The position numbers were made by a program, and so were the translations under genes. A stretch of 64,000 bases of DNA, from positions 71,503 through 135,502 of the IMG/VR virus record IMGVR_UViG_3300028423_000356; one strand, written 5' to 3'. Below, in pieces: positions 22,107-59,084 of the stretch. The DNA comes from a virus. The notes below the pieces were generated by a model. The model saw only the letters and a program-made list of their open reading frames with translations, was not told the DNA's origin and ran no database searches. Every line of letters starts with the position of its first letter. Within the stretch, counting starts at the first letter, position 1.

Positions 22107-22111
22107 ATCAT

Positions 22112-22701: not shown

Positions 22702-22716
22702 AGTGAAATTAATAGG

Positions 22717-23607
22717 ATGTGTATTATGAATGATAAATTTAAATCAATTAAAACACCTTTAAGATATCCTGGTGGAAAATCTAGGGCAACAGAAAAAATG
22801 TCAAAGTTTCTACCTAATATGAACGATTATGTTTCATATAATGAAGCATTTTTGGGTGGTGGTTCATTTGCAATTTGGATGACTAAAAAATACCCTCATT
22901 TAAAAATAAATGTGAATGACTTATATGAACCCCTATATAACTTTTGGGTTCAATTACGTGATAACGGGAATGATATGTCTGAAGAACTTTTAAGACTTAA
23001 AAATAAAAATCCTGAACCCACATCTGCTAAAAAATTATTTTTAGAATCAAAAGAATATGTTAATGATACTACTCTTGATGATTTTCAGAGAGCGGTGAGA
23101 TTTTATATTGTTAATAAATGTTCATTTTCTGGATTAACTGAATCTTCTTCATTTAGTAAAGGTGCAAGTGAAAGTAATTTTTCTATTAGGGGTATAGAAA
23201 ATTTAAAGTTATATTCTGTGTTAATAAAGGATTGGAATATAACTAATAATTCTTATGAAACTATGTTGAGTAATTACACCGAAACATTTGTTTATCTTGA
23301 TCCTCCATATGATATAAAAGATAATTTGTATGGTAAAAAGGGTAATATGCATAATGGATTTAGTCACGATGAATTTGCAAAAACGTGTGATATATTCAAA
23401 TGTCATCAAATGATTTCATATAATAATTCACAACTTGTTAAAGATAGATTTAAAGGTTGGAATACTGGACTTTTTGATTTAACGTATACTATGCGTTCAG
23501 TCGGTGATTATATGAATAATCAGAAAGACAGGAAAGAATTATTATTATTAAATTATAATACTAATAATCAAAATGGAAACTCTCTTGAATCTTTTTTTGG
23601 TGATTGA
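22717..23607 (+). CDS. Dam-like N6-adenine methyltransferase (D12)
   Basis: TPLRYPGGKS, EAFLGGGS, YLDPPY, MISYN. Confidence 0.9.
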   Translation: MCIMNDKFKSIKTPLRYPGGKSRATEKMSKFLPNMNDYVSYNEAFLGGGSFAIWMTKKYPHLKINVNDLYEPLYNFWVQLRDNGNDMSEELLRLKNKNPEPTSAKKLFLESKEYVNDTTLDDFQRAVRFYIVNKCSFSGLTESSSFSKGASESNFSIRGIENLKLYSVLIKDWNITNNSYETMLSNYTETFVYLDPPYDIKDNLYGKKGNMHNGFSHDEFAKTCDIFKCHQMISYNNSQLVKDRFKGWNTGLFDLTYTMRSVGDYMNNQKDRKELLLLNYNTNNQNGNSLESFFGD

Positions 23608-23608
23608 T

Positions 23609-23890
23609 ATGAATATTATGAAAATTAGTGACATACACAAATATAGAAATTATAGAAGTGTTATAGATTTACATGGGTATACTATTCATCAAGGATGGGA
23701 AAAATTTAATGAAACAATTAACAATTGTTATTTAAATGGACAGAATAAAATAGTAGTTATTACAGGACAAGGTTTAATGATGAGAGAATTTCCTGTTTGG
23801 TGTGATAATCATTATTATGTTAAAAGTTGTAATCAAAGTAAAAATAATCCAGGTAGTTTCACTTTGAAATTAAAAAAGAAAAAAATATAA
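23609..23890 (+). CDS. stand-alone Smr domain nuclease
   Basis: IDLHG, VVITGQG, NPGSF motifs. Confidence 0.8.
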   Translation: MNIMKISDIHKYRNYRSVIDLHGYTIHQGWEKFNETINNCYLNGQNKIVVITGQGLMMREFPVWCDNHYYVKSCNQSKNNPGSFTLKLKKKKI

Positions 23891-23901
23891 ATAGATATGA
23901 T

Positions 23902-23984
23902 GCGTCTGTGATGGAATTGGTAGACATGCTAGATTTAGATTCTAGTGCTTCGGCGTGAGAGTTCGAGTCTCTCCAGACGCACCA
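23902..23984 (+). tRNA. tRNA-Leu(TAG)
   Basis: ctaga-tttagat-tctag, variable arm, CCA; late promoter at 23886. Confidence 0.9.
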
Positions 23985-24000
23985 AATCAATATAAAATAA

Positions 24001-24075
24001 GGACAGGTGGCGGAGTGGTGACGCAACGGATTGCAAATCCGTATTACATGGGTTCGAATCCCATTCTGTCCTCCA
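24001..24075 (+). tRNA. tRNA-Cys(GCA)
   Basis: acgga-ttgcaaa-tccgt, U73 CCA. Confidence 0.9.
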
Positions 24076-24149
24076 ATAATCAACAAAAAATAAAAAAAAA
24101 AACTATTGACTTTTTTTTCAAGTCAATCTATATCAATTTATAATACAAT

Positions 24150-25034
24150 ATGGAGAATGTGATGATAAAATTAAAAGCAACAGATTATGAAACTTTAATA
24201 GTTATGGGTTGGTATTTAATAAATGACTTGGAAATAGATTTTGATAAATCAAATATAAAGAAAAGTTTATATGATGTTTTAATTCAAGATGATGATGTTT
24301 TACAGATTGGTAAAAACATTGCATATAAAATAAAAACAGAATTAAATATGAATGGTGATGAGGATGCTAAACTTTTAAGTAGAAATAATAAATCACCCCT
24401 GACTGAATTTTGGATTTCATATGGTGCAGTAAATACAACTTCTAAAACTGATGTGCTTATTGGTGATAAAAGAATATCTGTTAAAATGGGTGATTCTCAA
24501 CTTATGTCTGGTGGTAAAAATGAATCCATTGCAACTTTTCATGCTGCAGTGAATAAGTCAAATACTATTCTAACACCACAATATTATAAAACATTAGACA
24601 TCATGAATAGATTTGTGACGAGTAATCTTGCACCCACAAAAGTAAATGTTATATTAAAAAAAGGTGATGATGATATTATTAATGATGCTGAAAAAGCACA
24701 TAAAGAAATTATGTTTGAATTAGGTAAAATATTTGATGACAATGAGAAATTTAGAATAGAATTTGCTCGTGAAGCAATGTCTGGATTAATGAAATATGGA
24801 GAAGAATCTAATTCAACAGCAGAGTATATATTAGTATCAGATTATGTTGGTGAACATATACAGATAAATTCAATATATGATAATGATTTTTGTAATAAAG
24901 TGTCAAAAAATATGAAATTACAATGTAGATTTAAATCGTCTGGTAGAGTAATTAAAAAGAAAAAGACTGGTGAATATAACTATTGGTCTGTAATATCATT
25001 AATTACACAACATAAATTAGAAGAAATAATATAA
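24150..25034 (+). CDS. putative PD-(D/E)XK-like endonuclease
   Basis: SKTDVLIG..RISVKMG..QLMSG motif. Confidence 0.45.
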   Translation: MENVMIKLKATDYETLIVMGWYLINDLEIDFDKSNIKKSLYDVLIQDDDVLQIGKNIAYKIKTELNMNGDEDAKLLSRNNKSPLTEFWISYGAVNTTSKTDVLIGDKRISVKMGDSQLMSGGKNESIATFHAAVNKSNTILTPQYYKTLDIMNRFVTSNLAPTKVNVILKKGDDDIINDAEKAHKEIMFELGKIFDDNEKFRIEFAREAMSGLMKYGEESNSTAEYILVSDYVGEHIQINSIYDNDFCNKVSKNMKLQCRFKSSGRVIKKKKTGEYNYWSVISLITQHKLEEII

Positions 25035-25076
25035 ATAAAATAAAATAATGGATAAAGGAATATAAAAAATGAAAAT

Positions 25077-25152
25077 GCGAGATTAGCTCAGTTGGTAGAG
25101 CAGGTCGTTTACACCGATCAGGTCGGGGGTTCAAATCCTCCATCTCGCACCA
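25077..25152 (+). tRNA. tRNA-Val(TAC)
   Basis: ggtcg-tttacac-cgatc, CCA. Confidence 0.9.
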
Positions 25153-25156
25153 TAAA

Positions 25157-25232
25157 GGGACTATAGCTCAGTTGGTAGAGCACTCCCCTGATAAGGGAAA
25201 GGTCAGTGGTTCAAGTCCACTTAGTCCCACCA
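25157..25232 (+). tRNA. tRNA-Ile(GAT)
   Basis: tccc-ctgataa-ggga, CCA. Confidence 0.9.
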
Positions 25233-25255
25233 TCAAAAAAATAAAAGGAAATATT

Positions 25256-25636
25256 ATGAGTATAATGAGAGTGATAGAAATGATTATTGCATGTGCAATT
25301 ATGGTAGTGTTTGGTAGTGCAATTTTGGCATTCTTCGTGGGTCTTGGGACACACAACGGGATGGTAGGATTGGATACTACAATATCTAATCTTTTCTGGA
25401 AGTACCTTACTATCGCTGGATGGGGTCTTGGGGGTGCACTTTTTGTCGGCATAATGCGTGAAGTAACCGCGGGCATTGCACCCATATTCAGAAAAGAACG
25501 AGTATATGGTATGACATGTGAAGAACTTGAAGAAGAAGTAAGAGAAAAAGAAGAAGAACAAAAAAACAAGGTAAGAGAACCATCCAAATATGAAAAAATT
25601 ATTATGGAATATAATGAAAAAAATAATTTAAAATAA
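25256..25636 (+). CDS. two-TM membrane protein
   Basis: aagga RBS before ATG 25256; two hydrophobic helices, charged tail. Confidence 0.6.
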   Translation: MSIMRVIEMIIACAIMVVFGSAILAFFVGLGTHNGMVGLDTTISNLFWKYLTIAGWGLGGALFVGIMREVTAGIAPIFRKERVYGMTCEELEEEVREKEEEQKNKVREPSKYEKIIMEYNEKNNLK

Positions 25637-25650
25637 TAGTGATTAAACTA

Positions 25651-25678
25651 TTGACAAAGTGTATGATATATACTATAT
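25651..25678 (+). promoter_or_regulatory. sigma70-type promoter
   Basis: TTGAC-N17-CTATAT. Confidence 0.75.
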
Positions 25679-25709
25679 AATACATATAACATTATAAAGT
25701 GAAAGGAAT

Positions 25710-25922
25710 ATGATGAATAATAATGTAAAAATATACTGTGAAGATTTTGATAAACCAATGAATGGTAAAGTAGTATCTGAAAGTAACCATAGATTGGAAG
25801 TGAGTTTAAATGATGGTGGAGAACCAATTTTATTTTATAAAGTTGGTAAAAACACTTTTCTATGTAATAAAGGTGGATATGACTTCACAATTAGAAGAAA
25901 GGTTTTAACTAATGTTAAATGA
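25710..25922 (+). CDS. hypothetical protein (paralog of next gene)
   Basis: VKIYC..PILFYK..NTFLCNK. Confidence 0.6.
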   Translation: MMNNNVKIYCEDFDKPMNGKVVSESNHRLEVSLNDGGEPILFYKVGKNTFLCNKGGYDFTIRRKVLTNVK

Positions 25923-26115
25923 AATTTATAACCCTATAGTTAAAGTTTATTGCACTCAATGGGGTTCTTCTGTAGAAGGTCAGTTAGTTCATGATGAAGG
26001 TGATAGACTTTTTGTTAAAATAGATGAATTTAGACGACCTATTGTGTTTTATAAAACAAAAACAAACACATTTGTATGTAATAAGGCAATGATGGAATTA
26101 GTCATTACATTATAA
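25912..26115 (+). CDS. hypothetical protein (paralog of previous gene)
   Basis: VKVYC..PIVFYK..NTFVCNK. Confidence 0.6.
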   Translation: MLNEIYNPIVKVYCTQWGSSVEGQLVHDEGDRLFVKIDEFRRPIVFYKTKTNTFVCNKAMMELVITL

Positions 26116-26123
26116 TAATAATT

Positions 26124-26199
26124 GCGGGTGTAGCTCAGTTGGTAGAGCATCTGATTGCCATTCAGAAGGTCGGGAGTTCGAACCTCCTTGCCCGCTCCA
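26124..26199 (+). tRNA. tRNA-Gly(GCC)
   Basis: tctga-ttgccat-tcaga, U73 CCA. Confidence 0.9.
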
Positions 26200-35628: not shown

Positions 35629-36804
35629 ATGGAAGTTAAAATGAATAAAAGTATTAAATACATTGAGTTGTTTGCTGGTTGTGGTGGTTTTAGAGTTGGT
35701 TTAGAGAGAGCATCGAATCTATTTGATTCTGTGTGGTCTAATCAATGGGAACCAAATAAGAAAAAACAATTCGTTTGGGAATGCTATGAAAACAATTATG
35801 GTGAAGGTATCTGTGTTAACGAAGATATTCACAATGTGTCTTCTAATAATATCCCTGACTTTGACCTATTGACCGCTGGTTTTCCTTGTCAGGATTATTC
35901 AGTTGCCAAATCATTAAAGTATTCTGGTGGTATCGAAGGTAAGAAGGGTGTTTTGTGGTGGCAGATTGATAGAATTATTAAAGATAAGAAACCGAAGTAT
36001 GTATTACTTGAAAATGTTGATAGGTTGATTAAATCACCAGCAAATCAACGTGGACGAGATTTTTCTATTATTCTTAGTTGTCTTATGAATTCTGGATACT
36101 CTGTTGAGTGGAAAATTATTAATGCTGCGAATTACGGTATGCCTCAAAAGCGTAAAAGGTTATTCATCTTCGCAAGAAAGGATAATAAACAAAATAAAAT
36201 TCTTAAAGACACCTTTCCTCACGAAGAGTTAAATAACATCACCTTTGAAATTGGTAATGATATTTTAGAATTATCAGAAAATTTCGTTATTAATAAAAAC
36301 AAACAATTTTTTGAATATGGTAGTGCAAGTAATTTCAATATTACTACAAGTAAAGTAAATGATACTTATGATGGTGATTATACTTTACTTGGTGATATAG
36401 TTGAGGATATTGATAATGTTGATGATACATTTTTTATCAATAATCTCGAAAAGTGGCAAGAGTTGAAAGGTGGTAGAAAGATTAATAGAGTATCAAAGAG
36501 TGGTCACGCATATGTTTATAGTGAGGGTAAAATGTCCTTTCCTGATAGTTTAGAAAAACCTGGAAGAACTATTATTACGGGAGAGGGTGGTAAATCACCA
36601 TCAAGATTTAAGCATGTAATTGAACAGAATAACATACTAAGGCGTTTAACTCCCGTTGAATTGGAAAGACTTCAAATGTTTCCTGATAATCACACAGAGG
36701 GTTTTACTGACACACAAAGAGCATTTATGATGGGTAATGCTTTAGTTACAGGTGTTGTTGAAAAAATTGGTGTAGAATTAATTAAACAAGAAAATAATTA
36801 TTAA
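35629..36804 (+). CDS. C5-cytosine DNA methyltransferase (M.Sau3AI-like)
   Basis: ELFAGCGG, GFPCQDYSVA, ENVDRL..SP..QRGRDF, QKRKR, MGNA. Confidence 0.9.
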   Translation: MEVKMNKSIKYIELFAGCGGFRVGLERASNLFDSVWSNQWEPNKKKQFVWECYENNYGEGICVNEDIHNVSSNNIPDFDLLTAGFPCQDYSVAKSLKYSGGIEGKKGVLWWQIDRIIKDKKPKYVLLENVDRLIKSPANQRGRDFSIILSCLMNSGYSVEWKIINAANYGMPQKRKRLFIFARKDNKQNKILKDTFPHEELNNITFEIGNDILELSENFVINKNKQFFEYGSASNFNITTSKVNDTYDGDYTLLGDIVEDIDNVDDTFFINNLEKWQELKGGRKINRVSKSGHAYVYSEGKMSFPDSLEKPGRTIITGEGGKSPSRFKHVIEQNNILRRLTPVELERLQMFPDNHTEGFTDTQRAFMMGNALVTGVVEKIGVELIKQENNY

Positions 36805-37458: not shown

Positions 37459-37755
37459 TCATTTATTTTTATTATTCATATATGCTTTAGCACCAAAAAA
37501 GAAACCAACAATAGATGCTAATGCTAAAAATAAAGTTCCACTCATAGAAGACACTATTACAAGTCTTGACTCATCTATAAAGGGTAGAACAGGTAATATT
37601 GCATACCCTATCATTGATAATAAAGACACCCAAGCCATTTTTTCTTGGGAATCAGATTTTCCATCCTTGTTTTGAATGTCGAGCATTTTTTCTTTTTTAA
37701 TTAATTCATCTTCTGTGATTTTACCATCACCATCTAAATCAAAATCATTTTTCAT
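37459..37755 (-). CDS. EF-hand-like loop plus two-TM protein (holin-like)
   Basis: DLDGDGKITEDE, two TMs, IVGFFFG. Confidence 0.55.
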   Translation of the reverse strand: MKNDFDLDGDGKITEDELIKKEKMLDIQNKDGKSDSQEKMAWVSLLSMIGYAILPVLPFIDESRLVIVSSMSGTLFLALASIVGFFFGAKAYMNNKNK

Positions 37756-38191
37756 TTTTACTTGCCTCATTAACCTTTGTTGAATCAACTTTTTCTTCCA
37801 TCATAAGAGTATTTCTATTCATCATATGTTTAAGTCTTATTTCATCTTTGTCTTTACCAATGTATTTCACTGCATATGATTCTTGAACTAAAATTTCACA
37901 AATATTATTACCATCTTCTGTGAAAGGTTCCCCCAATATTCTTCCAAATTTTCCCATTTCATCTTTATGTGTTCTTATAATACAATCTTTTTTTATAAGT
38001 TCAGATAATCTCTCTTTAGCAGCAATACCAAAAATCTTTTCAACTTTATCAGATGTTCTTGATTCTGGTGTGTCTATACCATATAATCTTATCTGTTGTT
38101 TTTTCCAAACTATGCCAAATCCTAAATGTAAATCACCTTCTATAGTATCACCATCAATAATTCTAATATTTTTTAATTTATACTCATACAT
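37745..38191 (-). CDS. thermonuclease (SNase) family protein
   Basis: IIDGDT, RLYGIDTPESRT, GKFGRILG. Confidence 0.88.
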   Translation of the reverse strand: MYEYKLKNIRIIDGDTIEGDLHLGFGIVWKKQQIRLYGIDTPESRTSDKVEKIFGIAAKERLSELIKKDCIIRTHKDEMGKFGRILGEPFTEDGNNICEILVQESYAVKYIGKDKDEIRLKHMMNRNTLMMEEKVDSTKVNEASKNEK

Positions 38192-38270: not shown

Positions 38271-38882
38271 ATGGAAGATAAAGATGTATGGAAAAAATAT
38301 CCTGATTCACATAGATGGTTTAATAAACTTTATATATCTGAATTAATGGGATATGAGTGTGGACCTTGTGGAGTTGCTCCAGAAAGGTCAGATTACTACA
38401 TCGTTAGACCCATTTATAACCTTTCAGGTATGAGTGCTGGTGCTTCAAAAATGTTTATATCATCTGGTGATATGACAAAGGTTCAACCTGGTTATTTTTG
38501 GTGTGAGTGGTTTGAGGGTAAACATTATTCTGTTACATATGAATTGAATAATGGTGAATATAAAGTAAAAAGTTGTTGGGTTGGAGAGAAAAAAGATTTG
38601 AAGTTTTTAAAATGGATTAGAAGTGATTATTCACCTACATTCCCAAGTGATATAAAAATTGAATATCCAATAGTTAACATTGAATTTATAGGTGATAATT
38701 TGATTGAAATACATTTAAGAGACACACCTGACCCAGATTATGATGAAATAATTCCTATATGGGAAAATGATTCAACTTCAAAAATGAGTTATTATGAGTT
38801 AATGGGATATAAATTCATAAAAAGTTATGATAATGCTGATGGTTTTATTAAAACAGCGAGAAAAGGATTTATGGTAAAATGA
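38271..38882 (+). CDS. ATP-grasp-like hypothetical protein
   Basis: YIVRPIYNLSGMS, FWCEWFEG.HYSV, VNIEFIG..LIEIHLR; gagg RBS before 38271. Confidence 0.5.
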   Translation: MEDKDVWKKYPDSHRWFNKLYISELMGYECGPCGVAPERSDYYIVRPIYNLSGMSAGASKMFISSGDMTKVQPGYFWCEWFEGKHYSVTYELNNGEYKVKSCWVGEKKDLKFLKWIRSDYSPTFPSDIKIEYPIVNIEFIGDNLIEIHLRDTPDPDYDEIIPIWENDSTSKMSYYELMGYKFIKSYDNADGFIKTARKGFMVK

Positions 38883-38894
38883 AATTGTTTTTAC

Positions 38895-38902
38895 TATAAA
38901 TA
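38895..38902 (+). promoter_or_regulatory. T4-type late promoter for tmRNA
   Basis: TATAAATA directly upstream of tmRNA acceptor piece. Confidence 0.65.
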
Positions 38903-38907
38903 TAATT

Positions 38908-39242
38908 GTTAACGTTGAAACAACGTGGACACATTCTGGACCTGGGGGCGGTACCCAGCGACTCCACCATAGATACATTGTCTTGAACTAGAAGTGGCAA
39001 AAGCAACGAAAAAACTAAGTTACCCAGACTACTGGGTTACATGGGGGAGGATCCCATAGACAGTGTATCTTTGATGGGGTCGAAATAGGATCGACAGGTG
39101 TGAAAGTGAAGTGGAGTTAACCGTGGTGACTTACGATATTCGGTCAAACTTTATAACTGCAAACACAAACGCAGCGCCAGAAATGGCATTTGCTGCCTAA
39201 TTAGGTAAGCAGGGCGGGTACTGCCTGGTAACAGAAGTGCCT
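38908..39242 (+). ncRNA. ssrA: circularly permuted two-piece tmRNA, tag ANTNAAPEMAFAA
   Basis: 3' acceptor piece ..GGCGGTACCC..CGACTCCACCA ends at 38969, before 5' piece GGGGTCGAAATAGGATCGAC at 39076; G3-U70 pair; tag ORF 39159..39200; outer ends approximate. Confidence 0.9.
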
Positions 39243-39245
39243 TTT

Positions 39246-39253
39246 TATAAATA
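39246..39253 (+). promoter_or_regulatory. T4-type late promoter
   Basis: TATAAATA upstream of the membrane gene cluster. Confidence 0.6.
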
Positions 39254-39329
39254 GATTTATATAGAATCTGATAATTTATTTTAGATACGTCTTCTTTGGG
39301 TTTACAGATTCAAAACTAAGGAGATACTA

Positions 39330-39983
39330 ATGTTTAAATTCTTATTAATATCATTTTTTCTTATTTTACCTATTTCTGTTAATGCTGGAGAAATAGAGGT
39401 TAGAGGAGATTATATACTCTTCGAAGGTCAATTTAAAAAAGGTTCAGCACTTGCTTTAATGATGAAAATAGATGAAACAGGAATAAAAAAGGTTCACTTA
39501 AATTCACCTGGTGGTTTATCTAATGAAGGTTATTTGATGGGAAATGGTTTTAGAAATAAAAATATAACCGTTGTGGTTAAAGAAAATCACTCTTGTATAT
39601 CAGCTTGTGCAATCGCATTTCTTGGTTCTAAAAATCAAAAATTGGAAGGACTAATTGCATTTCACGTTGCTCATATACCCAAACAATTCCAGAAAAAGGT
39701 AAATCCAAGTGACGCACTAAAAAATGGTCAAATGATTGGAACTATGACAACGGAGTATTTTTATAGAATGGGTTACAATTTACAATTACAATATTTTATA
39801 ACACATTTTACAACAGCAGACACATTTTTGGTGTTTAAAAATTTAGAAGAACTACATACATTTAAATTTAATGAAGATAAACCATATAACATATTCAACG
39901 AATATAGTAATAAATGGATGGCAGAAAGAATATCGGGTTTAATGAGATTGAATTTTTTAAAGAAAATTGAAGGAGATATATAA
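39330..39983 (+). CDS. exported ClpP/crotonase-fold protein (COG3904-like)
   Basis: Signal peptide ending VNA; VHLNSPGG, CISACAIAFLG, IAFH. Confidence 0.7.
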   Translation: MFKFLLISFFLILPISVNAGEIEVRGDYILFEGQFKKGSALALMMKIDETGIKKVHLNSPGGLSNEGYLMGNGFRNKNITVVVKENHSCISACAIAFLGSKNQKLEGLIAFHVAHIPKQFQKKVNPSDALKNGQMIGTMTTEYFYRMGYNLQLQYFITHFTTADTFLVFKNLEELHTFKFNEDKPYNIFNEYSNKWMAERISGLMRLNFLKKIEGDI

Positions 39984-40453
39984 TGATATTTTGGAAGTGG
40001 TGGACTATTAATGTTTTATTTACAGTAGGGTTTGTATTTTCAGAATATAAATTCAATTCAATTTCTTATCTAATAGAAAATGACATTAGTTATCTTAGTT
40101 TAGTTATAATAACTATATTTGTCATAACAAACATTCAAATAGGTATAAAATGTTATAACTTACAATTCAATAATCAATATTTATATGAAGAAGATTTAAA
40201 TCCTAATTGGTTCAATTCTGATTTAGTTATGAGTATTGGTATGGTTGGAACTCTCTTGGGTTTTATATTAGTTCTTAACTCTGCATTTACAGATATGAAT
40301 CCTGAAAATACTGATAAGATGAAAGAAATTATTGCACAGGTTGCACAAGGTATGGGTGTTGCAATATTAACAACATTAACTGGATTGATTTCTTCTATTA
40401 TTTTAAAGTTTAATTTGGTTATGTTGGAGAAAGAAAATGCAAAAAAGATATAA
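39983..40453 (+). CDS. MotA/TolQ/ExbB proton-channel family protein
   Basis: Four TMs; IGMVGTLLGF..GMGVAILTTLTGL signature. Confidence 0.85.
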   Translation: MIFWKWWTINVLFTVGFVFSEYKFNSISYLIENDISYLSLVIITIFVITNIQIGIKCYNLQFNNQYLYEEDLNPNWFNSDLVMSIGMVGTLLGFILVLNSAFTDMNPENTDKMKEIIAQVAQGMGVAILTTLTGLISSIILKFNLVMLEKENAKKI

Positions 40454-41069
40454 CTCAAATCAAACATTTATGGATTTCATTCAAATAGTTGGTTTGGGAT
40501 TTATTGTATTGTTTTTAATCGCCTTTATGTTAATAAATCCCGTAGCAAAACAAGGTAAAATTGATCCAGTAACACAAATAATGATAAATGCGACTTGGGA
40601 TGAGAATGTTAATAAAGATATAGATTTGTGGGTTAGGGGTCCAGATGGTAGAACTATTGGTTTCAATAGAAAAGATGGTGAGTTTATAGTTCTGGACCGT
40701 GATGATTTGGGTAAAAACAATGATACTTATGAAGTTAATGGTGAACAGAAAGTGGTAAAAAGAAACATTGAAACTACAACTATTAATGCAATTGTTCCTG
40801 GAGAATATGTTATTAATATACACTATTTTGGATCTGGTTTCACATTAAAAAAGGATGGTTCTAGAGAAAAAGATGAATCACCAGAAAAGGTTAAAATAGA
40901 TATTATTGATATACATCCATTTAAAATTGTTTTATCCAGAGAAGTTACAGTTTCATATAGACAAGAAGTTACTGTTGCAACATTCATAGTAAATGAAGAA
41001 GGTAACATAGAAGACTTGAGAACGGATGTTAATATTAAAATATATAGAGCAGACGGTAGCAGACACTAG
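40437..41069 (+). CDS. ExbD/MotB-like TM plus YfaP-like periplasmic domain
   Basis: TM with Asp (FMDFIQ..LINP); W..DIDLWVRGPDG..LDRDDLG..PGEYVINIHYF. Confidence 0.65.
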   Translation: MQKRYNSNQTFMDFIQIVGLGFIVLFLIAFMLINPVAKQGKIDPVTQIMINATWDENVNKDIDLWVRGPDGRTIGFNRKDGEFIVLDRDDLGKNNDTYEVNGEQKVVKRNIETTTINAIVPGEYVINIHYFGSGFTLKKDGSREKDESPEKVKIDIIDIHPFKIVLSREVTVSYRQEVTVATFIVNEEGNIEDLRTDVNIKIYRADGSRH

Positions 41070-41080
41070 GAGAAAAAGAA

Positions 41081-41533
41081 ATGATGTATCAATTGTTATT
41101 TATATTGTTTTTAACGATTATAACTCTCATCACCATATCAATTATAATATATAAATCAAATGTCAATTTCATATATAAATTGGTTACCTTACCTTTACTA
41201 ATATTATTATTTTTAAATATTGCAGTATACACTTATGAAAATATGGGAAGACCTTTGAATAAATTTCCTGATTCGGAATTTGATTTATACCATTTTGAGA
41301 TAGTTAATGGTGGAGAAAATGTTATAATATGGGTTGATGATGATGGTTCAAGATTGTATAAAATACCATATAACAGAGAACAAGTTAAAAAGTTAAAAGA
41401 AGCAATGGAAAAAAAGAATCAACAAGAAGGTATAAGGGTTAAAGGTAAATTTAAAACAAATGATAAAAATGGCAGTAATTCCTTTGAATATGAAACAACA
41501 TTTAAAGAAGAAGGATACAATGCTGTAAAATAA
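41081..41533 (+). CDS. two-TM membrane protein
   Basis: Two N-terminal TMs, then MGRP..RLYKIPY soluble domain. Confidence 0.65.
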   Translation: MMYQLLFILFLTIITLITISIIIYKSNVNFIYKLVTLPLLILLFLNIAVYTYENMGRPLNKFPDSEFDLYHFEIVNGGENVIIWVDDDGSRLYKIPYNREQVKKLKEAMEKKNQQEGIRVKGKFKTNDKNGSNSFEYETTFKEEGYNAVK

Positions 41534-41555
41534 TATTAAGTGAGAAAGGTATATT

Positions 41556-42530
41556 ATGTGGAGATTCTACACTACTAAAAAATGGTTTTTATGGGCTTAT
41601 GTTGGTTCATTCACAATTCTAAGTTCAATATGGTTACAAGTTCAAATCGATGTCAAAATAAATGAATGGTTTGGTGAATTCTATGATATGATACAAAAGG
41701 CATTAGGTAATCCCAATGCAATTACAATGAATGAATATATAAATGGGTTAGTCTCTTTTGGTAAATTGGCCACACTATGGGTAATTTTGGGATTAATCAC
41801 GAGTTTTTTAACAGCCCATTTTCTTTTCCGTTGGAGAACATCTATGACAGAGTGGTATCATTCTGTTTATGATAGAGCAAGAACAATTGAAGGTGCTTCT
41901 CAACGTGTTCAAGAAGACACTATTAAATTCACTAGAATAATCGAAAATTTAGGAACTAATTTTATAGAATCTGTCATGGTTTTAATAGAGTTTTTCCCAC
42001 TATTACTTGGATTGTCTCTTGGTTTATCAATAATGTGGTTTGGTGACTGGGAGTATGGACTTGTTACAGGTGCTATTTTATGGGCAGTTGGTGGAACATT
42101 TCTAATGATACTTTTAGCTTGGATTTTAAGACTTGTTGGTATTGAATATGATTTGCAAAAAAAGGAAGCAGCATATCGTAAATTACTTGTTATTGCTGAA
42201 GATGATGGTTCTGTTAGACCCAAATCATTAGAAGAGTTATATGATGGTGTTAGAAAAATACATTATAAATCATATTTCCAATATTTGTGGTTTAATGTGG
42301 GTAGATTAGCATATTTACAGACAAATGTATTGGTTGCTTACATATTTTTAGCTCCGTCTATTGTTGCAGGAATTATGACATTAGGTGTTATGCAACAAAT
42401 TATAAGGGCATTTGGTAGAGTTCAAGAATCATTACAATATTTGTTTAAATCTTGGCCTGTTATAATTGAATTAGCTTCTGTATATAAAAGATTAAGAGAG
42501 TTTGAGAAAACTATAAAAAATATAAAATAA
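41556..42530 (+). CDS. SbmA/BacA-like peptide transporter
   Basis: INEWFGEFYDMIQKAL, FRWRTSM, IEGASQRVQEDT, EAAYRK.LV..ED, ELASVYKRLREFE. Confidence 0.9.
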   Translation: MWRFYTTKKWFLWAYVGSFTILSSIWLQVQIDVKINEWFGEFYDMIQKALGNPNAITMNEYINGLVSFGKLATLWVILGLITSFLTAHFLFRWRTSMTEWYHSVYDRARTIEGASQRVQEDTIKFTRIIENLGTNFIESVMVLIEFFPLLLGLSLGLSIMWFGDWEYGLVTGAILWAVGGTFLMILLAWILRLVGIEYDLQKKEAAYRKLLVIAEDDGSVRPKSLEELYDGVRKIHYKSYFQYLWFNVGRLAYLQTNVLVAYIFLAPSIVAGIMTLGVMQQIIRAFGRVQESLQYLFKSWPVIIELASVYKRLREFEKTIKNIK

Positions 42531-42592
42531 CTATTGACAAATAGGTATTAATAACTTATATAACATAATATCATAAAATGGAGAAATAAATT

Positions 42593-43273
42593 ATGAGTAA
42601 AGAATTAAAAAATAAAAAGAAGAATAAAAAGAAGAATAACAAAAAAGTCGAACCCAGTGTTATTCCAACCCCGAAACCACAATCTCCACCAATTCCTGTT
42701 CCTATGCCACCAATGTCAAATCAAAATAAACCAGCAGGTGAATATTTAAGAGAAAATGGGATATTGTTTATGGATAAAGAATTCAATCAAGATAATTGTA
42801 TGCCATTAGTTAAAGCAATTCTGGAATGGAATTTAATGCCAAAGGAAAAACAACCTGAAATTATACACCTTTATATCAACTCACCAGGTGGTTTAGTTGC
42901 TTCTGCTTGGCATTTAATTGATACTATTAAACAATCTAAAATACCAGTTTATACTTATGCAATGGGTATGGCGGCATCTTGTGGATGTTTATTATTGATG
43001 GCAGGTGAAAAAGGTCATCGTTATGTAACACAAAACACACATGTTATGTCACACGTTTATTCTGCTGGATCAGGTGGTAAAGAGTTTGATTTATTTGCAA
43101 GAGTGAAATCATTTGAACAGACTACAAAAAATATGATTAATCATTATAAGAAATGTACTGGTAAATCAGAAGAATACATTAGAAAGCACTTACTACCCGC
43201 TGAAGATGTTTGGTTAACACCAGAAGAAGCAATAGAACACGGTGTTGTTGACCATATTATAGAAACTTATTAA
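42593..43273 (+). CDS. clpP: ClpP protease
   Basis: LYINSPGG, AASCG (Ser), MSH (His), DVWLTPEEA.EHGVVD; promoter-like 42534. Confidence 0.9.
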   Translation: MSKELKNKKKNKKKNNKKVEPSVIPTPKPQSPPIPVPMPPMSNQNKPAGEYLRENGILFMDKEFNQDNCMPLVKAILEWNLMPKEKQPEIIHLYINSPGGLVASAWHLIDTIKQSKIPVYTYAMGMAASCGCLLLMAGEKGHRYVTQNTHVMSHVYSAGSGGKEFDLFARVKSFEQTTKNMINHYKKCTGKSEEYIRKHLLPAEDVWLTPEEAIEHGVVDHIIETY

Positions 43274-53668: not shown

Positions 53669-55900
53669 ATGTTTGAATTTCCAAATCAGTCTACTGATGT
53701 AGACACCCGTTCCCTTATGTCAGAAACCAAGTTTTATGAAGGTTATTCACGTTGGAGTGATGAAAACAATCGTTATGAAACATGGGAAGAGTCTGTTGAA
53801 CGTGTTATGAATATGCATCGTTCTTATTACAAAGACATTATGACTGATGAATTAGAAGATTATATTTCAGAGGCAGAAGAACTTTATAAACAAAAATACG
53901 CACTTGGTGCACAAAGAGCACTTCAATTTGGTGGTGACCAACTTTTAAAACATCAAATGCGTTTATACAACTGCACAAGTTCTTATGCAGATAGACCTAG
54001 GTTCTTTTCTGAAATATTTTACATTCTTTTATGTGGAGCAGGTGCAGGATTTTCAGTTCAATATCACCACATTGATAAGTTACCTAACATATCAGAAAGA
54101 AAAAAACAAGCAAAAATATTCGAAGTAGAAGATTCAATTGAGGGGTGGGCAGATGCTCTTGGTATATTGATGTCTTCATACTTTGTTGGTGGTGGACAGT
54201 TTCCTGAATATGAAGGACGTAGAGTATATTTTGATCTATCAAAGGTTCGTCCTAAAGGTTCAATGATTTCAGGTGGATTTAAAGCACCTGGACCAGAACC
54301 ACTAAGACGTGCATTAGATAAAATTGAACATCTCTTACAAGACAGAGTTCTTAAAGGTGAAACAAGATTAAGACCCATTGATGTATATGATATTACTATG
54401 CATGCGGCTGATGCTGTTCTTGCGGGTGGTGTAAGACGTTCCGCAACTATTTGTTTATTTTCACCAGAAGATAAAGAAATGATTAATGCAAAAACAGGTA
54501 ACTGGTTCATTGATAACCCACAACGTGGTCGCTCAAACAATTCTGCAGTTATTGTAAGAGATGAAATAACAAGACCTCAATTTAAAACAATTATGAAGTC
54601 TATTAAGGAGTATGGTGAACCGGGTTTCTATTTTGTTGAAGACAAAGACTTTACAACAAACCCATGTGTTGAAATAGGTATGTTCCCACAGCATGAAGGA
54701 AAATCAGGTTGGCAAGGTTGTAACCTTACTGAAATTAATGGTGGTTTATGTTCAACAAAAGAAGAATTCTATAAAGCATGTCGTGCAGCATCTATTATGG
54801 GAACATTGCAGGCAGGTTATACAAATTTCAAATATCTTGAAGATACATCTCGTAAGATTTTTGAAAGAGAAGCATTGTTGGGTGTTTCTGTTACAGGTTG
54901 GATGAACAATCCGAATATTCTACTTGATGAAAAGACTCAGAGGTACGGAGCTGAAATTGTTAAGGAGCTGAACTCAAAGGTAGCGACGTTAATTAACATA
55001 AACCCTGCCGCACGAACTACATGCGTGAAACCTTCTGGTAATGCATCTGTATTACTTCAAACTGCATCTGGAATTCACGCAGAACACTCTCCAAGATATT
55101 TAAGACACATACAGTTAAACAAAGAAACTGAAGTCGCAAAACTAATTGCTGAAAGTAATCCATATATGGTTGAAGATTCCGTATGGAGTCAGAATAATAC
55201 AGATTATTGTATAGCATTCCCAATTATTTCACCAGAGGGATCTATTTACAGAGAAGAACTGTATTCCACTAATCTATTAGAGAAAGTCAAATTAGTTCAA
55301 CAGAACTGGGTTGAAGCAGGAACTAACAAAGATAGATGTGTTGATGAAAGAGTTCGCCATAATGTTTCAAATACTGTAAGTGTATTGCCAGAACAATGGG
55401 CAGATGTAGAAGACTACGTGTTTGAAAATAGAAAATACTTCGCAGGTATTTCATTCCTTGGAGATTATGGGGATAAAGACTTCAATCAAGCACCTAATAC
55501 TGAAGTGCTTACGCCTAGTCAGATTGTTGAGAAATATGGAACGGCAGCAATGTTTGCTTCTGGAATGATTGTTGATACACTTCGTGCTGGGTTCAGAGAC
55601 CTATGGGAAGCAACATACATTGCTCAAAATAATGATGAGAATATCGTTGGTGAACTTTCAGATATGAGAAAAGATTGGATTCGTCGTTTCAATAAGTTTG
55701 CTGAAAATTATTGTGCTGGTGATTTGAAAATGACTGAATACTGTTTGAAAGATGTGTTTTTACTCCATAAATGGAATAAGATTCAATCTAATCTGAATTC
55801 TATTTCCTTTGAAGACCAATTAAGTGAAAAGATATTCACAGACATTGACACTATGGGTGCAATTGCTTGTTCTGCTGGTGCCTGTGAAATCACATTTTAA
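53669..55900 (+). CDS. nrdJ: ribonucleotide reductase, probably class II monomeric RTPR-type
   Basis: GGVRRSA, TNPCVEI, GCNL, VKPSG, C-terminal CSAGAC; no nrdB adjacent. Confidence 0.8.
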   Translation: MFEFPNQSTDVDTRSLMSETKFYEGYSRWSDENNRYETWEESVERVMNMHRSYYKDIMTDELEDYISEAEELYKQKYALGAQRALQFGGDQLLKHQMRLYNCTSSYADRPRFFSEIFYILLCGAGAGFSVQYHHIDKLPNISERKKQAKIFEVEDSIEGWADALGILMSSYFVGGGQFPEYEGRRVYFDLSKVRPKGSMISGGFKAPGPEPLRRALDKIEHLLQDRVLKGETRLRPIDVYDITMHAADAVLAGGVRRSATICLFSPEDKEMINAKTGNWFIDNPQRGRSNNSAVIVRDEITRPQFKTIMKSIKEYGEPGFYFVEDKDFTTNPCVEIGMFPQHEGKSGWQGCNLTEINGGLCSTKEEFYKACRAASIMGTLQAGYTNFKYLEDTSRKIFEREALLGVSVTGWMNNPNILLDEKTQRYGAEIVKELNSKVATLININPAARTTCVKPSGNASVLLQTASGIHAEHSPRYLRHIQLNKETEVAKLIAESNPYMVEDSVWSQNNTDYCIAFPIISPEGSIYREELYSTNLLEKVKLVQQNWVEAGTNKDRCVDERVRHNVSNTVSVLPEQWADVEDYVFENRKYFAGISFLGDYGDKDFNQAPNTEVLTPSQIVEKYGTAAMFASGMIVDTLRAGFRDLWEATYIAQNNDENIVGELSDMRKDWIRRFNKFAENYCAGDLKMTEYCLKDVFLLHKWNKIQSNLNSISFEDQLSEKIFTDIDTMGAIACSAGACEITF

Positions 55901-55969: not shown

Positions 55970-56101
55970 ATGGAAAGAAAATACGAAGGTGAATGTGATA
56001 TATGTAATTCTGTTATAGTTATGACAATAGTTACTGATGATGAACCCACAAGTTGCCCTTGCTGTGGTTCAGAAGTTGAGTATGAAGAAATGGAAGATTA
56101 A
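55970..56101 (+). CDS. 43 aa zinc-ribbon protein
   Basis: CDIC..CPCCG; ggag RBS; not in ORF track. Confidence 0.65.
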   Translation: MERKYEGECDICNSVIVMTIVTDDEPTSCPCCGSEVEYEEMED

Positions 56102-56508
56102 TGTGGTATTATAAAGAAGAAGAGTTCAATGAAACTCCAGAAGAATACCAAGGATTTGTTTACTGTATTACTGAAATAGATACAGGAATGAAATACATTG
56201 GTAAGAAATTCTTTTGGAAACCTAAAACACTTCCAAAAACTAAAACACGTAAAAGAAGAATAAAAACAAGAACTGAAAGTGATTGGAAAAAATATTATGG
56301 TTCTTCAAAGGAAGTGAAACAACTGATAGAAGAAAAGGGTATATCAAACTACCACAGAGAAATATTACATCTGTGTGAAACAAAGGGTGACTGTTCTTAT
56401 TATGAAATGAAAGAGCAACTGGAAAGAGATGTGTTACTCAAACCAGATGAATATTATAATGCATATGTAGGTGGTAAGATACACCGTAAACACGTGCTAA
56501 AATCCTAA
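56101..56508 (+). CDS. GIY-YIG endonuclease
   Basis: GFVYCIT..KYIGKK, YYGSS, YYN. Confidence 0.85.
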   Translation: MWYYKEEEFNETPEEYQGFVYCITEIDTGMKYIGKKFFWKPKTLPKTKTRKRRIKTRTESDWKKYYGSSKEVKQLIEEKGISNYHREILHLCETKGDCSYYEMKEQLERDVLLKPDEYYNAYVGGKIHRKHVLKS

Positions 56509-56730
56509 AAAGGTTTTAAGAGCAATTTTTTTGGCGGAAAAAATTTTTTAAATGAACCAATCTGAAAAGTGAAAAGTTTTTGAAGGTGAATTTATAGGTC
56601 GGACCCATGCCCCCCGTATATGGGGTGCCGTCTGCTATATTATTTAGCATAGGGGGGCGGGGTGCTACTACTACATATAAAAAAGGGGGCGTTGCTGCCC
56701 CCTTTTGTCTTGCTTGATATTCCTCGCTTT

Positions 56731-56946
56731 TTATGCTGTTTCTTGGATTTCCTTGACTACTTCGAATACTTCTTTCCAATCTGCATTATTTTCCATGTCA
56801 TCCCAATCTAAATGATTGCTTAGAATTTCAAGAATTTCTTCTTTTCCGATTGTGTCATCATCCCCTTTAATTCTGTTATAAATACCGTCTTCGTTATTCA
56901 TGTAAAGTGACATTTCCCAGGTTATTGTGTTTTTATATCCGTTCAT
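56731..56946 (-). CDS. small early protein
   Basis: gggag RBS; MNGYKNTITWEMSLYMNNE; promoter 57029..57056. Confidence 0.65.
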   Translation of the reverse strand: MNGYKNTITWEMSLYMNNEDGIYNRIKGDDDTIGKEEILEILSNHLDWDDMENNADWKEVFEVVKEIQETA

Positions 56947-57112
56947 AGCATTTCTCCCTTTTTTGCTATATTTTGTTGCTGCTTTCTGCTGCGGTGTGGG
57001 TTGGTGTGTTCCCCTTCCCTTATATAATATATAAGCTTTTATTTTTACTTTTTCAAGTGTTTTAGAAAGTTTTTTTATTTTTTTCCCTTCTTCGTTTTTG
57101 CTGCATCCACCC

Positions 57113-57322
57113 TTATTTTTGTAACTCTTTAACTCGGTCAAATATATCTTGCTCGATTTCTACCAATTCTGCCAAATCTTTTTTGTAGTGTGTTAATTTA
57201 TTTTTTACGCTTCTCAATTCTTCCAAGTTGACCGGAGTCGGATTGCTTTCCAAAAACTTCGCCGCTTCTTCTAAGTTGCTAACCATCTTTTTTATGTTGT
57301 TTATTTTTGCATCTATACTCAT
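57113..57322 (-). CDS. small early coiled-coil protein
   Basis: gggag RBS; promoter 57359..57386. Confidence 0.6.
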   Translation of the reverse strand: MSIDAKINNIKKMVSNLEEAAKFLESNPTPVNLEELRSVKNKLTHYKKDLAELVEIEQDIFDRVKELQK

Positions 57323-57358
57323 TTGGAAAACTCCCTTTTTTTATTTCCTATAATAATA

Positions 57359-57386
57359 ATATAGTATAATATTTTCCCAATGTCAA
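57359..57386 (-). promoter_or_regulatory. sigma70-type promoter (one of five on minus strand)
   Basis: TTGAC-N17-CTATAT; similar at 57029, 58139, 58797, 59343. Confidence 0.75.
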
Positions 57387-57393
57387 TAGTTTT

Positions 57394-57609
57394 TTAAACT
57401 AAAATATTAACTTTTTTTAAATTTCTTTCCGCCATCTTTAAAGCGGTTTCAATTGCTAAAACATCACTTTTAAAACTAATATTTTGCCCGGTATGGTCAC
57501 TAACATTATAACAATTTTTATTTTTTGTTAGTAAAACGCTCGCATATATGAGTCCATTTTCTTCGTTTATTACATTGTAACCGCTTGCGTTCTTCTTAAT
57601 TTTTAACAT
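57394..57609 (-). CDS. small early protein
   Basis: ggggag RBS. Confidence 0.6.
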   Translation of the reverse strand: MLKIKKNASGYNVINEENGLIYASVLLTKNKNCYNVSDHTGQNISFKSDVLAIETALKMAERNLKKVNILV

Positions 57610-57612
57610 TGT

Positions 57613-57786
57613 TCACTCCCCTAAATTGTTTTCTTCTATTATTTCTTTTAAATCTTCTATTGCTTCCGCTTCCGTTTCGCCGTATCCATAATATTCCGAA
57701 TTTTCTACGTAATCATCTAGATAGGCTACCCAATCGAGTGACCTTGTTGGAATTGGTGGCATTTGGTTAATTGTTATGATTTTCAT
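57613..57786 (-). CDS. small early protein, HicB-like motif
   Basis: gggag RBS before 57786; DWVAY..GYGETEAEAIEDL. Confidence 0.6.
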   Translation of the reverse strand: MKIITINQMPPIPTRSLDWVAYLDDYVENSEYYGYGETEAEAIEDLKEIIEENNLGE

Positions 57787-57838
57787 TTTGTAACTCCCTA
57801 TTTGTTTAGTTGAAAAGTGGGGGGGGTAACCCCCCGTA

Positions 57839-58105
57839 TTAAAATGCTTGAAACCCGTTAACTTCTTCCCTTTTCTTGACTTTTGTTTTAAGATATTCCG
57901 CAAGTTTTGGAAATGTTTCCCCATATCCATTATGGTCATTATATAAGTTTTCGAGGCTTTCCCTACTTTCTGAAATGAAAGTTACCATCTGAAAACCGTG
58001 TTCAATTGCAGCAGATGCAATTTCGCTATTATGTATTTTTGCAAATTCTTCGATTGCTTCTAGTGGCATTTCGTTGTCGATGTGTAGTTTAATTTGATAA
58101 GTCAT
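57839..58105 (-). CDS. small early protein
   Basis: aaggag RBS; promoter 58139..58166. Confidence 0.6.
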   Translation of the reverse strand: MTYQIKLHIDNEMPLEAIEEFAKIHNSEIASAAIEHGFQMVTFISESRESLENLYNDHNGYGETFPKLAEYLKTKVKKREEVNGFQAF

Positions 58106-58298
58106 TTTGCTCTCCTTTTTCTTATCTCTATACTATTAATATAAGCTTTTATTTTACCCTTTTCAAGCCCTAAAATCAATTTTTTCAAAAAAAATATTTC
58201 TTTTTTTCAATGCTTCATATATAGCGAAGTCACTCGCATCATTGTCAATTAATTCTTTTAAATTAAGATTTAATTGCCTTAATTTGTCATGTTGATTT

Positions 58299-58502
58299 TT
58301 ATCCATTAAATAACTCATTCAAATCCCTTTCCCAATCTATCATTATTTTTTTATTTTCGTGTATTTCTTTCACTTGAATATATTCCCTTAATAATTCGGG
58401 AGTCTCTCTCCATCTTTTCCAGGCAATTTTGATTGCTTCCATTCTGTCAAAAGTGAAATCCCACTCGCCTGCATAATCATATATTATAAATCTCATTTCC
58501 AT
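58299..58502 (-). CDS. small early protein
   Basis: gggag RBS. Confidence 0.55.
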   Translation of the reverse strand: MEMRFIIYDYAGEWDFTFDRMEAIKIAWKRWRETPELLREYIQVKEIHENKKIMIDWERDLNELFNG

Positions 58503-58560
58503 ACTCCCTAATATTTTTAAAATGTTTCCTTGAATTATACGGGGGATTTTCCCCGCTTTT

Positions 58561-58761
58561 TTAGATTGTGCCCGCTATACTTTTATTATAGAATATTTCG
58601 TTGCGGATGTCTTGGGATGTTCTTCCATCGCTTAATGTTTGGATGTTTACCCCGTTGCTATCTTTTAGCGTAATACCGTAACCAGGATTCTGACCACTTT
58701 CAATTTTGAAATAGTTGCCAACTTCGATTTTTTCGCCTGTGTTTAATGTGAATGTTTTCAT
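58561..58761 (-). CDS. small early protein
   Basis: gggag RBS; promoter 58797..58824. Confidence 0.6.
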   Translation of the reverse strand: MKTFTLNTGEKIEVGNYFKIESGQNPGYGITLKDSNGVNIQTLSDGRTSQDIRNEIFYNKSIAGTI

Positions 58762-58847
58762 TTTTGTAACTCCCTTTTTTGTTTCCTATAATAATAATAT
58801 AGCGTTAAGTCGGGGGTATTTCAACCCCCTAAACTCATTTTTTTTAA

Positions 58848-59084
58848 TTAAATTTTTAACGCTATTACTGAGTCGACTCTAAATGATCTCCATCCGTTCG
58901 CTTCGGTGTCAAAACATTTGACGACATCCTCACTAATATCTGTTTTTCCCGTTCCCTTAATTTCTGGCAATAATTCATCGATTAAGGTTGCTTTCATAAT
59001 TCTATGATCCCCGTTCTTCTTTGTGAATTCTACGGTTGCTATATTTTTCTTTAAAACTTCTTTTATTTCATTATAATCAAACAT
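58848..59084 (-). CDS. WYL_2/DUF2693-like SH3 beta-barrel protein
   Basis: VEFTKKNG..R.MKATL..FDTEANGWRSFR. Confidence 0.75.
   Translation of the reverse strand: MFDYNEIKEVLKKNIATVEFTKKNGDHRIMKATLIDELLPEIKGTGKTDISEDVVKCFDTEANGWRSFRVDSVIALKI

Follow-up and report, generated by a model that had tools for sequence, protein, structure and literature searches.

Ion-driven motors of the MotA/ExbB family are known in several arrangements. In TolQ-TolR-TolA and ExbB-ExbD-TonB, a channel subunit, a subunit with an aspartate in its single transmembrane (TM) helix and a third membrane-anchored subunit are encoded in this order, and in the MotAB and PomAB stators a MotA-family subunit adjoins a TM-Asp subunit within one operon; a study on MotAB evolution groups the non-flagellar relatives as heterogeneous "generic ion transporters" (PMC12505986). 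SbmA of Escherichia coli and rhizobial BacA are SLiPT proton-driven peptide importers (PDB 7p34). Here we describe a cassette of six genes, A to F, that joins a MotA/ExbB-type subunit to an importer of the SbmA/BacA family. It lies at 39330-43273 on the + strand of a 64-kb stretch of viral DNA (the window), which is the last part of the 135.5-kb IMG/VR virus record IMGVR_UViG_3300028423_000356, whose completeness is judged to be 79%. The cassette is a conserved phage operon composed of two separable sub-modules, B-C-D and A-E-F, and the families and conserved residues of B-C-D suggest that this trio is most likely an undescribed, divergent Tol/Ton-like ion-driven module. The six genes are:

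39330-39983, + strand: A, putative exported serine hydrolase of probable ClpP fold (COG3904-like), 217 amino acids (aa)
39983-40453, + strand: B, minimal MotA/ExbB/TolQ-type channel subunit, 156 aa (PF01618, 27.9 bits, cut-off 22.9)
40437-41069, + strand: C, ExbD/TolR/MotB-like single TM helix followed by a predicted TerD/DUF2135-like β-sandwich, 210 aa
41081-41533, + strand: D, TM hairpin and small predicted α/β domain (~95 residues), 150 aa (model pLDDT 86.8)
41556-42530, + strand: E, SbmA/BacA-family importer, 324 aa (PF05992, 425 bits)
42593-43273, + strand: F, ClpP-family protease, 226 aa (PF00574, 124.9 bits)

The open reading frames (ORFs) overlap by 1 nt at A/B and 17 nt at B/C and are separated by 11, 22 and 62 nt at C/D, D/E and E/F, respectively, so that no gap exceeds 62 nt; this agrees with the tight packing noted in an earlier reading of the same sequence (the original prediction). 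Two promoter-like sites accompany them:

39246-39253, + strand: T4-late-promoter-like octamer TATAAATA, 77 nt upstream of A
~42536-42564, + strand: sigma-70-like TTGACA-17 nt-TATATA in the E-F gap, read off the sequence

The second site gives the ClpP gene F a promoter-like element of its own, as had been proposed; it was not listed by the promoter scan, which demanded T at the last position.

A phage operon of two separable modules

Relatives of C were collected from IMG/VR with no other cassette gene presupposed (506 relatives; 80 loci kept). Of these loci, 78 encode B within 7 kb of C, 79 encode D, 57 E, 50 A and 46 F. When the C sequences were dereplicated at 90% identity, 43 lineages were left; all six genes are present in 18 of them, 13 with the order ABCDEF. 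The arrangements, several of the shorter of which stop at contig edges, are:

ABCDEF: 13 lineages
A inverted, then BCDEF: 2 lineages
AEBCDF: 2 lineages
E-A-F on the opposite strand, 3.7 kb from BCD: 1 lineage
BCDE: 6 lineages
ABCDE: 3 lineages
BCDEF: 2 lineages
ABCDF: 1 lineage
ABCD: 1 lineage
A inverted, then BC (contig end after C): 1 lineage
BCD only: 11 lineages

The original prediction had named missing linkage in other genomes as a finding that would count against it; in phages the linkage holds. Among the 18 six-gene lineages, which have a guanine-cytosine (GC) content of 0.36-0.49 compared with 0.29 in the window, adjacent genes are mostly spaced by -4 to +2 nt despite median pairwise identities of 30% (A), 45% (B), 49% (C), 35% (D), 64% (E) and 54% (F). 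B-C-D is inserted at differing points relative to A, E and F (ABCDEF, AEBCDF and EAF...BCD). The six-gene lineages span at least two kinds of replication module, and a Pfam run on one member per cluster placed a fused Toprim-DnaB primase-helicase nearby in 5 of the 43 lineages. The retention of content and spacing despite this divergence and the differing phage backbones argues that the linkage exceeds a chance neighbourhood. The genes around the cassette in these phages are unlike those in the window. The same run revealed a class II-type ribonucleotide reductase (RNR) just upstream of the cassette, together with PhoH and often MazG, in 15 of the 43 lineages, and in seven a Glu/Leu/Phe/Val-dehydrogenase gene that adjoins F or separates E from F. 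Examples of the latter are L208:5981-7033 and the cluster of loci L168, L210, L212, L214, L235 and L236; no homologue of this dehydrogenase was found in the window's own, 79% complete record.

Analysis of bacterial genomes showed that B-C-D also exists outside phages. A scan seeded with C found 457 relatives, and of 80 loci kept, 79 encode B, C and D, in 78 cases in the order B-C-D within 2.5 kb. Of the species genomes sampled, 42 of 301 from alphaproteobacteria and 36 of 300 from gammaproteobacteria (~13%) contain C. The trio is flanked by housekeeping genes that differ between lineages (TilS, AccA, a histidine kinase, trehalose-phosphate synthase and aspartate dehydrogenase). In many gammaproteobacteria a YkuD transpeptidase and a DUF302 protein are encoded upstream of B-C-D and a vWA-FHA protein downstream. 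Genes for a vWA-FHA protein follow the trio on the same strand in 23 of the 80 bacterial loci (e.g. L110:7159-8676), and Rhizobium phage RHph_I1_18 likewise has a vWA-domain gene, 1.8 kb downstream of B-C-D. One alphaproteobacterial locus (L113:3279-6014) contains a B-like ORF of 911 aa, whose length could reflect an N-terminal fusion or, in this GC-rich DNA, an ORF that was called too long. In these 80 loci the trio never stands beside SbmA, ClpP or A, and its native job in bacteria would thus be independent of them. In the order of a small-genome carrier (a metagenome-assembled genome labelled Pelagibacteraceae), SbmA was found in 1 of 11 genomes, as a fragment at a contig end.

Among cultured phages, 29 records contain C, and every one is from a Rhizobium or Sinorhizobium phage. 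RHph_I1_18 and RHph_N3_19 carry the complete trio annotated as hypothetical, so that a bench test is possible. The exported protein encoded upstream of B in RHph_I1_18 was tried as a homologue of A and rejected (hhalign E 0.49, not A-like). INPHARED phages show no DNA similarity to the cassette region. Metagenomes contain more than 4,500 clusters of C at 90% identity, with no Pfam domain, and their members are named only "hypothetical protein" or by gene-call coordinates.

The second sub-module, A-E-F, is a phage-specific line that can stand without B-C-D, as it does in locus L056. A scan of IMG/VR seeded with SbmA (at least 190 relatives; 80 loci kept) found B-C-D in 15 loci, F in 7 and A in 2; that SbmA mostly occurs without B-C-D indicates that it is widespread among phages independently of the trio. 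These relatives, at 69-79% identity, are common in large marine phage contigs. The five large SbmA-bearing phage records considered are 112-328 kb long with completeness of 30-100%, and one of them, a genome complete at 328 kb, has terminal repeats and also contains B-C-D and F. Only four INPHARED records match E, none of them marine (Acinetobacter, Salmonella and Escherichia phages). The original prediction treated the cassette as one system, which stands insofar as the six genes are linked in phages; B-C-D is self-standing in bacteria, and SbmA and A-E-F are separable from it.

The motor-like trio

B matches PF01618 above the cut-off, and two of its bacterial homologues do so with 36.3 and 30.9 bits. 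Three clear hydrophobic segments and a weaker N-terminal one point to three to four TM helices; the MotA/ExbB assignment that had been proposed is therefore upheld, and the four TM helices proposed with it are not certain. In the Gly/Thr-rich last two TM helices, ten residues (G86, G89, T90, G93, F94, G123, A127, T130, G134 and L135) are each conserved in 90% or more of 138 sequences, and they presumably correspond to ion-path residues of TolQ/ExbB. The PF01618 match and these TM Gly/Thr motifs make B resemble TolQ and ExbB, from which it differs in its length of 156 aa. Only ~24 residues separate the TM helices where ExbB and TolQ have a large cytoplasmic domain. The best match to a solved structure by sequence is MotA (E 0.085, over TM3). 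Four genomes that carry the trio also hold canonical ExbB/ExbD pairs scoring more than 100 bits, and B is the weakest PF01618 match in each, which indicates that the trio exists in these bacteria besides the canonical sets.

C begins with a positively charged N-terminus and a single TM helix, in which Asp13 does not vary across 14 phage sequences and is retained by 90% or more of 137 sequences from phages and bacteria, in line with the proposal that it has the Asp expected of a MotB/ExbD-like partner. Its N-terminal "F-x-D-L-L-F-N..." segment presumably resembles the ExbD/TolR anchor. The ExbD model PF02472 misses C both in the window and in the four carrier genomes, and by Pfam C has neither the ExbD/TolR fold nor an OmpA-like peptidoglycan-binding domain. 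A YfaP-like domain had been suggested instead. DUF2135, the YfaP domain, came up as a lead from the Atlas alone (feature score 0.84, one structure row), and the nearest fold is that of TerD: in an AlphaFold model (predicted local distance difference test, pLDDT, 83.7), residues 45-205 superpose on TerD entries 2qz7 (Z 9.7, root-mean-square deviation 4.0, 133 residues aligned) and 2kxt (Z 9.0), the next row scoring 5.9, and Foldseek gave E 1.5e-4. By sequence, the only PDB match is a subtilisin β-jelly-roll (E 0.44). TerD is a tellurite-resistance, Ca-binding β-sandwich protein, and the title of entry 2kxt names calcium binding. The conserved acidic clusters D61/D63 and D89/D90/D96, together with the likeness to TerD, suggest that the modelled sandwich of C binds a metal, probably Ca. 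Unlike TerD and DUF2135 proteins, C appears to be anchored in the membrane by an ExbD-like helix, an architecture of which we found no description in the literature searched.

D has two TM segments, as had been reported for it, and the loop between them has a Lys that 90% or more of the sequences share. A wide structural search with D returned only helical-hairpin matches, to residues 1-57. Under the positive-inside rule, the conserved loop Lys would place the small D domain in the periplasm, and we infer the same side for the sandwich of C. Complex prediction for B, C and D with D as partner gave a score of 0.01 and a mark of 0.32, values that count neither for nor against an assembly. Searches for fused or longer forms of C and D gave no scoring match, which is weak evidence.

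The trio shares with TolQ-TolR-TolA and ExbB-ExbD-TonB its gene order, its channel subunit, its single-TM Asp subunit and a third membrane-anchored subunit. It departs from them in the TerD-like domain, predicted to be periplasmic, that C has in comparison with TolR and ExbD, and in D, a 150-aa hairpin protein that gave no TonB or TolA match. With the MotAB and PomAB stators B and C share a MotA-family subunit adjoining a TM-Asp subunit in one operon, but C lacks the OmpA-like peptidoglycan-binding domain and B the torque-generating cytoplasmic domain of these systems. Hidden Markov models of Zorya ZorA also match B (best 9.7e-8 in PADLOC and 1.1e-4 in NCBIfam), but the match covers ~70 residues of profiles 461-780 long and scores 15-21 bits against NCBIfam cut-offs of 100-500. 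B lacks a ZorA tail, C gave no ZorB match, no ZorC/D/E-type genes are present, and the cassette, unlike Zorya, is phage-borne, with bacterial copies among housekeeping genes. Since B matches only the shared TM core of ZorA, and A, C, D, E and F match nothing among the PADLOC models, the idea of a Zorya decoy is not sustained.

The limited literature collection that we searched describes neither the cassette nor the trio, nor does it treat SbmA among auxiliary metabolic genes, consistent with the statement in the original prediction that no system of this composition has been characterized. No paper on phage SbmA was found there and none combining pelagimyophages or pelagiphages with SbmA; a term search of a survey of SbmA/BacA distribution met neither phages nor viruses (PMC12003926), and searches for COG3904 gave only unrelated papers. 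B-C-D appears to be a very small and so far undescribed branch within the MotA/ExbB motor family, and differing marine phages repeatedly package it with a peptide importer and two ClpP-fold proteins, one of them putative. We know of nothing comparable among phage auxiliary genes. This packaging points to a phage-run route from envelope to cytoplasm, which would bear on phage nutrition in nutrient-poor seas.

Proteins A, E and F and possible roles of the cassette

The first 19 residues of A form a signal-like hydrophobic segment. Alignment of 22 homologues revealed as invariant the GG of an SPGG motif, C89-x-S91-x-C93 and H112. A matches phrog_26024 "protease" at 2.7e-6, and the nearest neighbours of its Atlas model are COG3904 "periplasmic protein" clusters and ClpP (TM-score 0.63-0.73). 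Similarity of A to both ClpP and NfeD is consistently seen, although weak, and includes the SPGG motif and the region of the Ser; A differs from ClpP in its apparent export, in the Cys-x-Ser-x-Cys surroundings of the Ser and in having no conserved Asp. The exported ClpP/crotonase-fold protein that had been proposed is compatible with the signal-like segment and the Atlas neighbours, the likeness in sequence being weak.

E is a member of the SbmA/BacA family, as had been recognized before. It spans positions 2-314 of the 315 in PF05992 and aligns to residues 75-393 of E. coli SbmA (E 5e-82). With reference to the SbmA residues named in PMC8442886, E keeps equivalents of all five ladder glutamates (E193, E203, E276, E287 and E378) and of Y116, R190, R280, K281, D288 and Y368, which covers most of the gate residues; Y285 is replaced by Ile. 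Unlike SbmA and BacA, E is phage-encoded and lacks the N-terminal TM0 part, that is, the first ~74 residues of SbmA.

The ClpP that had been noted behind E is a regular family member (S14) with a Ser-His-Asp triad (S129, H154 and D205) that is invariant in 17 homologues. All 17 also carry a charged, Lys/Pro-rich N-terminal extension of 40-60 residues, which is unlike usual ClpP. A role of F as head protease is ruled out, since a T4 gp21-type protease is encoded at 5706-6152.

We tentatively favour a reading, in our estimate falling somewhat short of an even chance, in which the cassette salvages peptides and amino acids from the envelope and B-C-D does periplasmic work driven by the proton-motive force (PMF). 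B would be the channel subunit of an inner-membrane MotA/ExbB-type complex and C its axle-like subunit with a protonatable Asp in the TM helix, and the β-sandwich of C, reaching into the periplasm, would replace the TolR/ExbD or peptidoglycan-binding domain; D would take the operon position of TolA or TonB, its small domain being probably periplasmic. A, as an exported ClpP-fold Ser/His hydrolase, would act on periplasmic or envelope protein, E, as a proton-driven SbmA importer, would bring in peptides and other hydrophilic cargo, and F, as a cytoplasmic ClpP, would turn imported peptides towards amino acids during infection. ClpP can cleave short peptides without an unfoldase, and the dehydrogenase gene beside the cassette in 7 of 43 lineages fits a use of amino acids. 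Microcin J25 enters E. coli by an outer-membrane step energized by TonB and ExbBD and then through SbmA, which is a precedent for a PMF motor and SbmA in one pathway. A bolder form of the salvage reading, which we regard as quite unlikely, has the B-C-D motor mechanically feed or activate A in the ATP-free periplasm, as ClpX does for ClpP, after which SbmA imports the peptides and the phage ClpP, aided in some phages by the amino-acid dehydrogenase, finishes. If this were true, the phage would turn host envelope protein into building blocks, and bacterial B-C-D would represent minimal ion-driven motors of a new class, with a periplasmic client of their own.

A number of observations weigh against the salvage reading or against the parts on which it is built. 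SbmA, ClpP or A was found near the trio in 0 of the 80 bacterial loci, and neither SbmA nor ClpP adjoins B-C-D in RHph_I1_18 and RHph_N3_19; in phages, B-C-D stands alone in 11 of 43 lineages and 65 of the 80 SbmA-found loci lack it. Phage auxiliary genes tend to gather in few variable regions, which could inflate the linkage. A quick tree of C separates phages from bacteria with a support of 26 and contains many long branches, so that no donor is inferred. At the level of the proteins, A has no invariant Asp across its 22 homologues, and its likeness to ClpP is weak, with E 0.02-0.2 against PDB ClpP chains and, in hhalign against the profile of F, E 8e-4 at a probability of 24%. B is without the cytoplasmic domain of ExbB, TolQ and MotA. 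C has no Pfam match at E≤0.1, TerD (PF02342) and DUF2135 (PF09906) included; D has no Pfam match and no significant fold match (Foldseek best E 0.15), and its domain is too small to span the periplasm. The late promoter that had been proposed before A is present as an octamer, but this motif shows no clear enrichment across the window (27 occurrences versus 18.6 ± 4.7 expected; 7 of 100 shuffles reach 27).

Several of these points would be expected if the six were independent auxiliary genes that act separately on host physiology (B-C-D, SbmA, ClpP and A each by itself), share a variable region and are adjacent through insertion hot spots and common descent. The parts do occur apart (SbmA without B-C-D in 65 of 80 loci, B-C-D alone in 11 of 43 lineages, A-E-F alone in L056), bacteria link only B-C-D, and typical marine-phage auxiliary genes (PhoH, MazG and class II RNR) directly adjoin the cassette. 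We nevertheless consider independence rather unlikely, as the six genes recur in 18 of 43 lineages with overlap-level spacing despite median identities of 30% for A and 35% for D, in phages with differing replication modules and with B-C-D at differing points inside the A/E/F set. Alternatively, the cassette could remodel the envelope for exclusion, re-energizing, replacing or jamming the host Tol/Ton machinery and altering inner-membrane uptake so as to block superinfecting phages or bacteriocins or to time lysis. A to E are all predicted membrane or periplasmic proteins, the trio is alone in many phages, and the C domain resembles TerD, whose ter operon is linked to phage and colicin resistance; Tol/Ton motors, moreover, are entry routes for phages and colicins, the case of fd phage pIII and TolQ-TolR being treated in PMC10424213. 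This explanation leaves the cytoplasmic ClpP and the amino-acid dehydrogenase of 7 of 43 lineages without a role, no PADLOC defence model matched beyond the shared MotA/ExbB core, and the bacterial trio is found among housekeeping genes and not in defence islands, which makes it unlikely in our view.

Import of a cofactor is harder still to reconcile with the cassette. SbmA would here take in cobalamin or another hydrophilic compound for a class II RNR, with B-C-D acting as ExbBD-TonB do. The window does encode such an enzyme (53669-55900), 15 of 43 lineages have the same kind of RNR directly before the cassette, and the SbmA family includes a mycobacterial B12 transporter (PMC3603451, by its title "A vitamin B12 transporter in Mycobacterium tuberculosis"), the Rv1819c-type chain 6tqe matching E at 8.9e-5. 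This RNR was, however, matched in none of the five large SbmA-bearing phage records, one of them the complete 328-kb genome with B-C-D and F; the cassette contains no outer-membrane receptor gene, D is short with no TonB-like match, and A and F are left unexplained, so that cofactor import appears very unlikely. A pairing of F with the transfer-messenger RNA (tmRNA) of this phage, in which tmRNA would tag stalled or host proteins and the phage ClpP degrade them, is more improbable again. The tmRNA gene ends ~3.3 kb upstream of F in the window, F has its own promoter-like site, and the paper on methylophage Melnitz suggests that proteins might be marked for recycling by phage tmRNA (PMC9004378). 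Yet only one of the 80 C-found loci (L179) has a tmRNA near the cassette, compared with 46 of 80 for F; none was found in the 83 loci of the first set, and the conserved neighbours of F are E and D. The tmRNA is context and not a conserved member of the cassette.

The phage genome around the cassette

The source is a marine myophage related to T4. The gp43-type DNA polymerase encoded in the window is 55.6% identical to that of "Phage C48C1" and 47-48% to those of T4-like cyanophages, and a DnaB-like helicase and an SbcC-like nuclease subunit are also encoded. Further features of the window are:

5706-6152: T4 gp21-type prohead protease (PF03420, 146 bits)
38868-39246, + strand: two-piece (permuted) alphaproteobacterial-type tmRNA with tag ANTNAAPEMAFAA (Rfam RF01849, 115.6 bits; RF04321, 116 bits)
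53669-55900: class II-type (B12-dependent) RNR, with RNR_Alpha and the B12-dependent RNR insertion domain

ARAGORN places the two-piece tmRNA at 38875-39291. The stretch marked out by the original prediction begins at 39246 and so abuts or overlaps the 3' end of this tmRNA, which had been overlooked; the six genes behind it are real. No clear terminator is seen between the tmRNA and A, and another TATAAATA is found by the tmRNA gene, at 38895. Two-piece tmRNAs of alphaproteobacterial type are known from pelagimyophages and the related methylophage Melnitz (PMC9004378), and the tmRNA type together with the base composition (GC ~0.29) points to an alphaproteobacterium of low GC as the probable host.

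The class II RNR gene coincides with a stretch of raised GC (0.357), and its product is 66% identical to the RNR of Rhizobium phage RHph_I1_18, itself a carrier of B-C-D. Just upstream of the tmRNA, at 37459-38191 on the - strand, a staphylococcal-nuclease-like gene is found with a gene for a small EF-hand/TM protein. A 391-aa ORF at 35629-36804 contains FAGCGG and PCQDYS motifs, which are typical of DNA cytosine-5 methyltransferases, and may encode such an enzyme. Fourteen tRNA genes (Ala, Asn, Asp, Arg, Glu, Thr, Ser, Trp, Pro, Leu, Cys, Val, Ile and Gly) are located at 20208-26199, with small ORFs interspersed among them. At 56000-60000 both GC skew and AT skew become negative, unlike in the remaining window, which suggests opposite-strand genes or foreign DNA.

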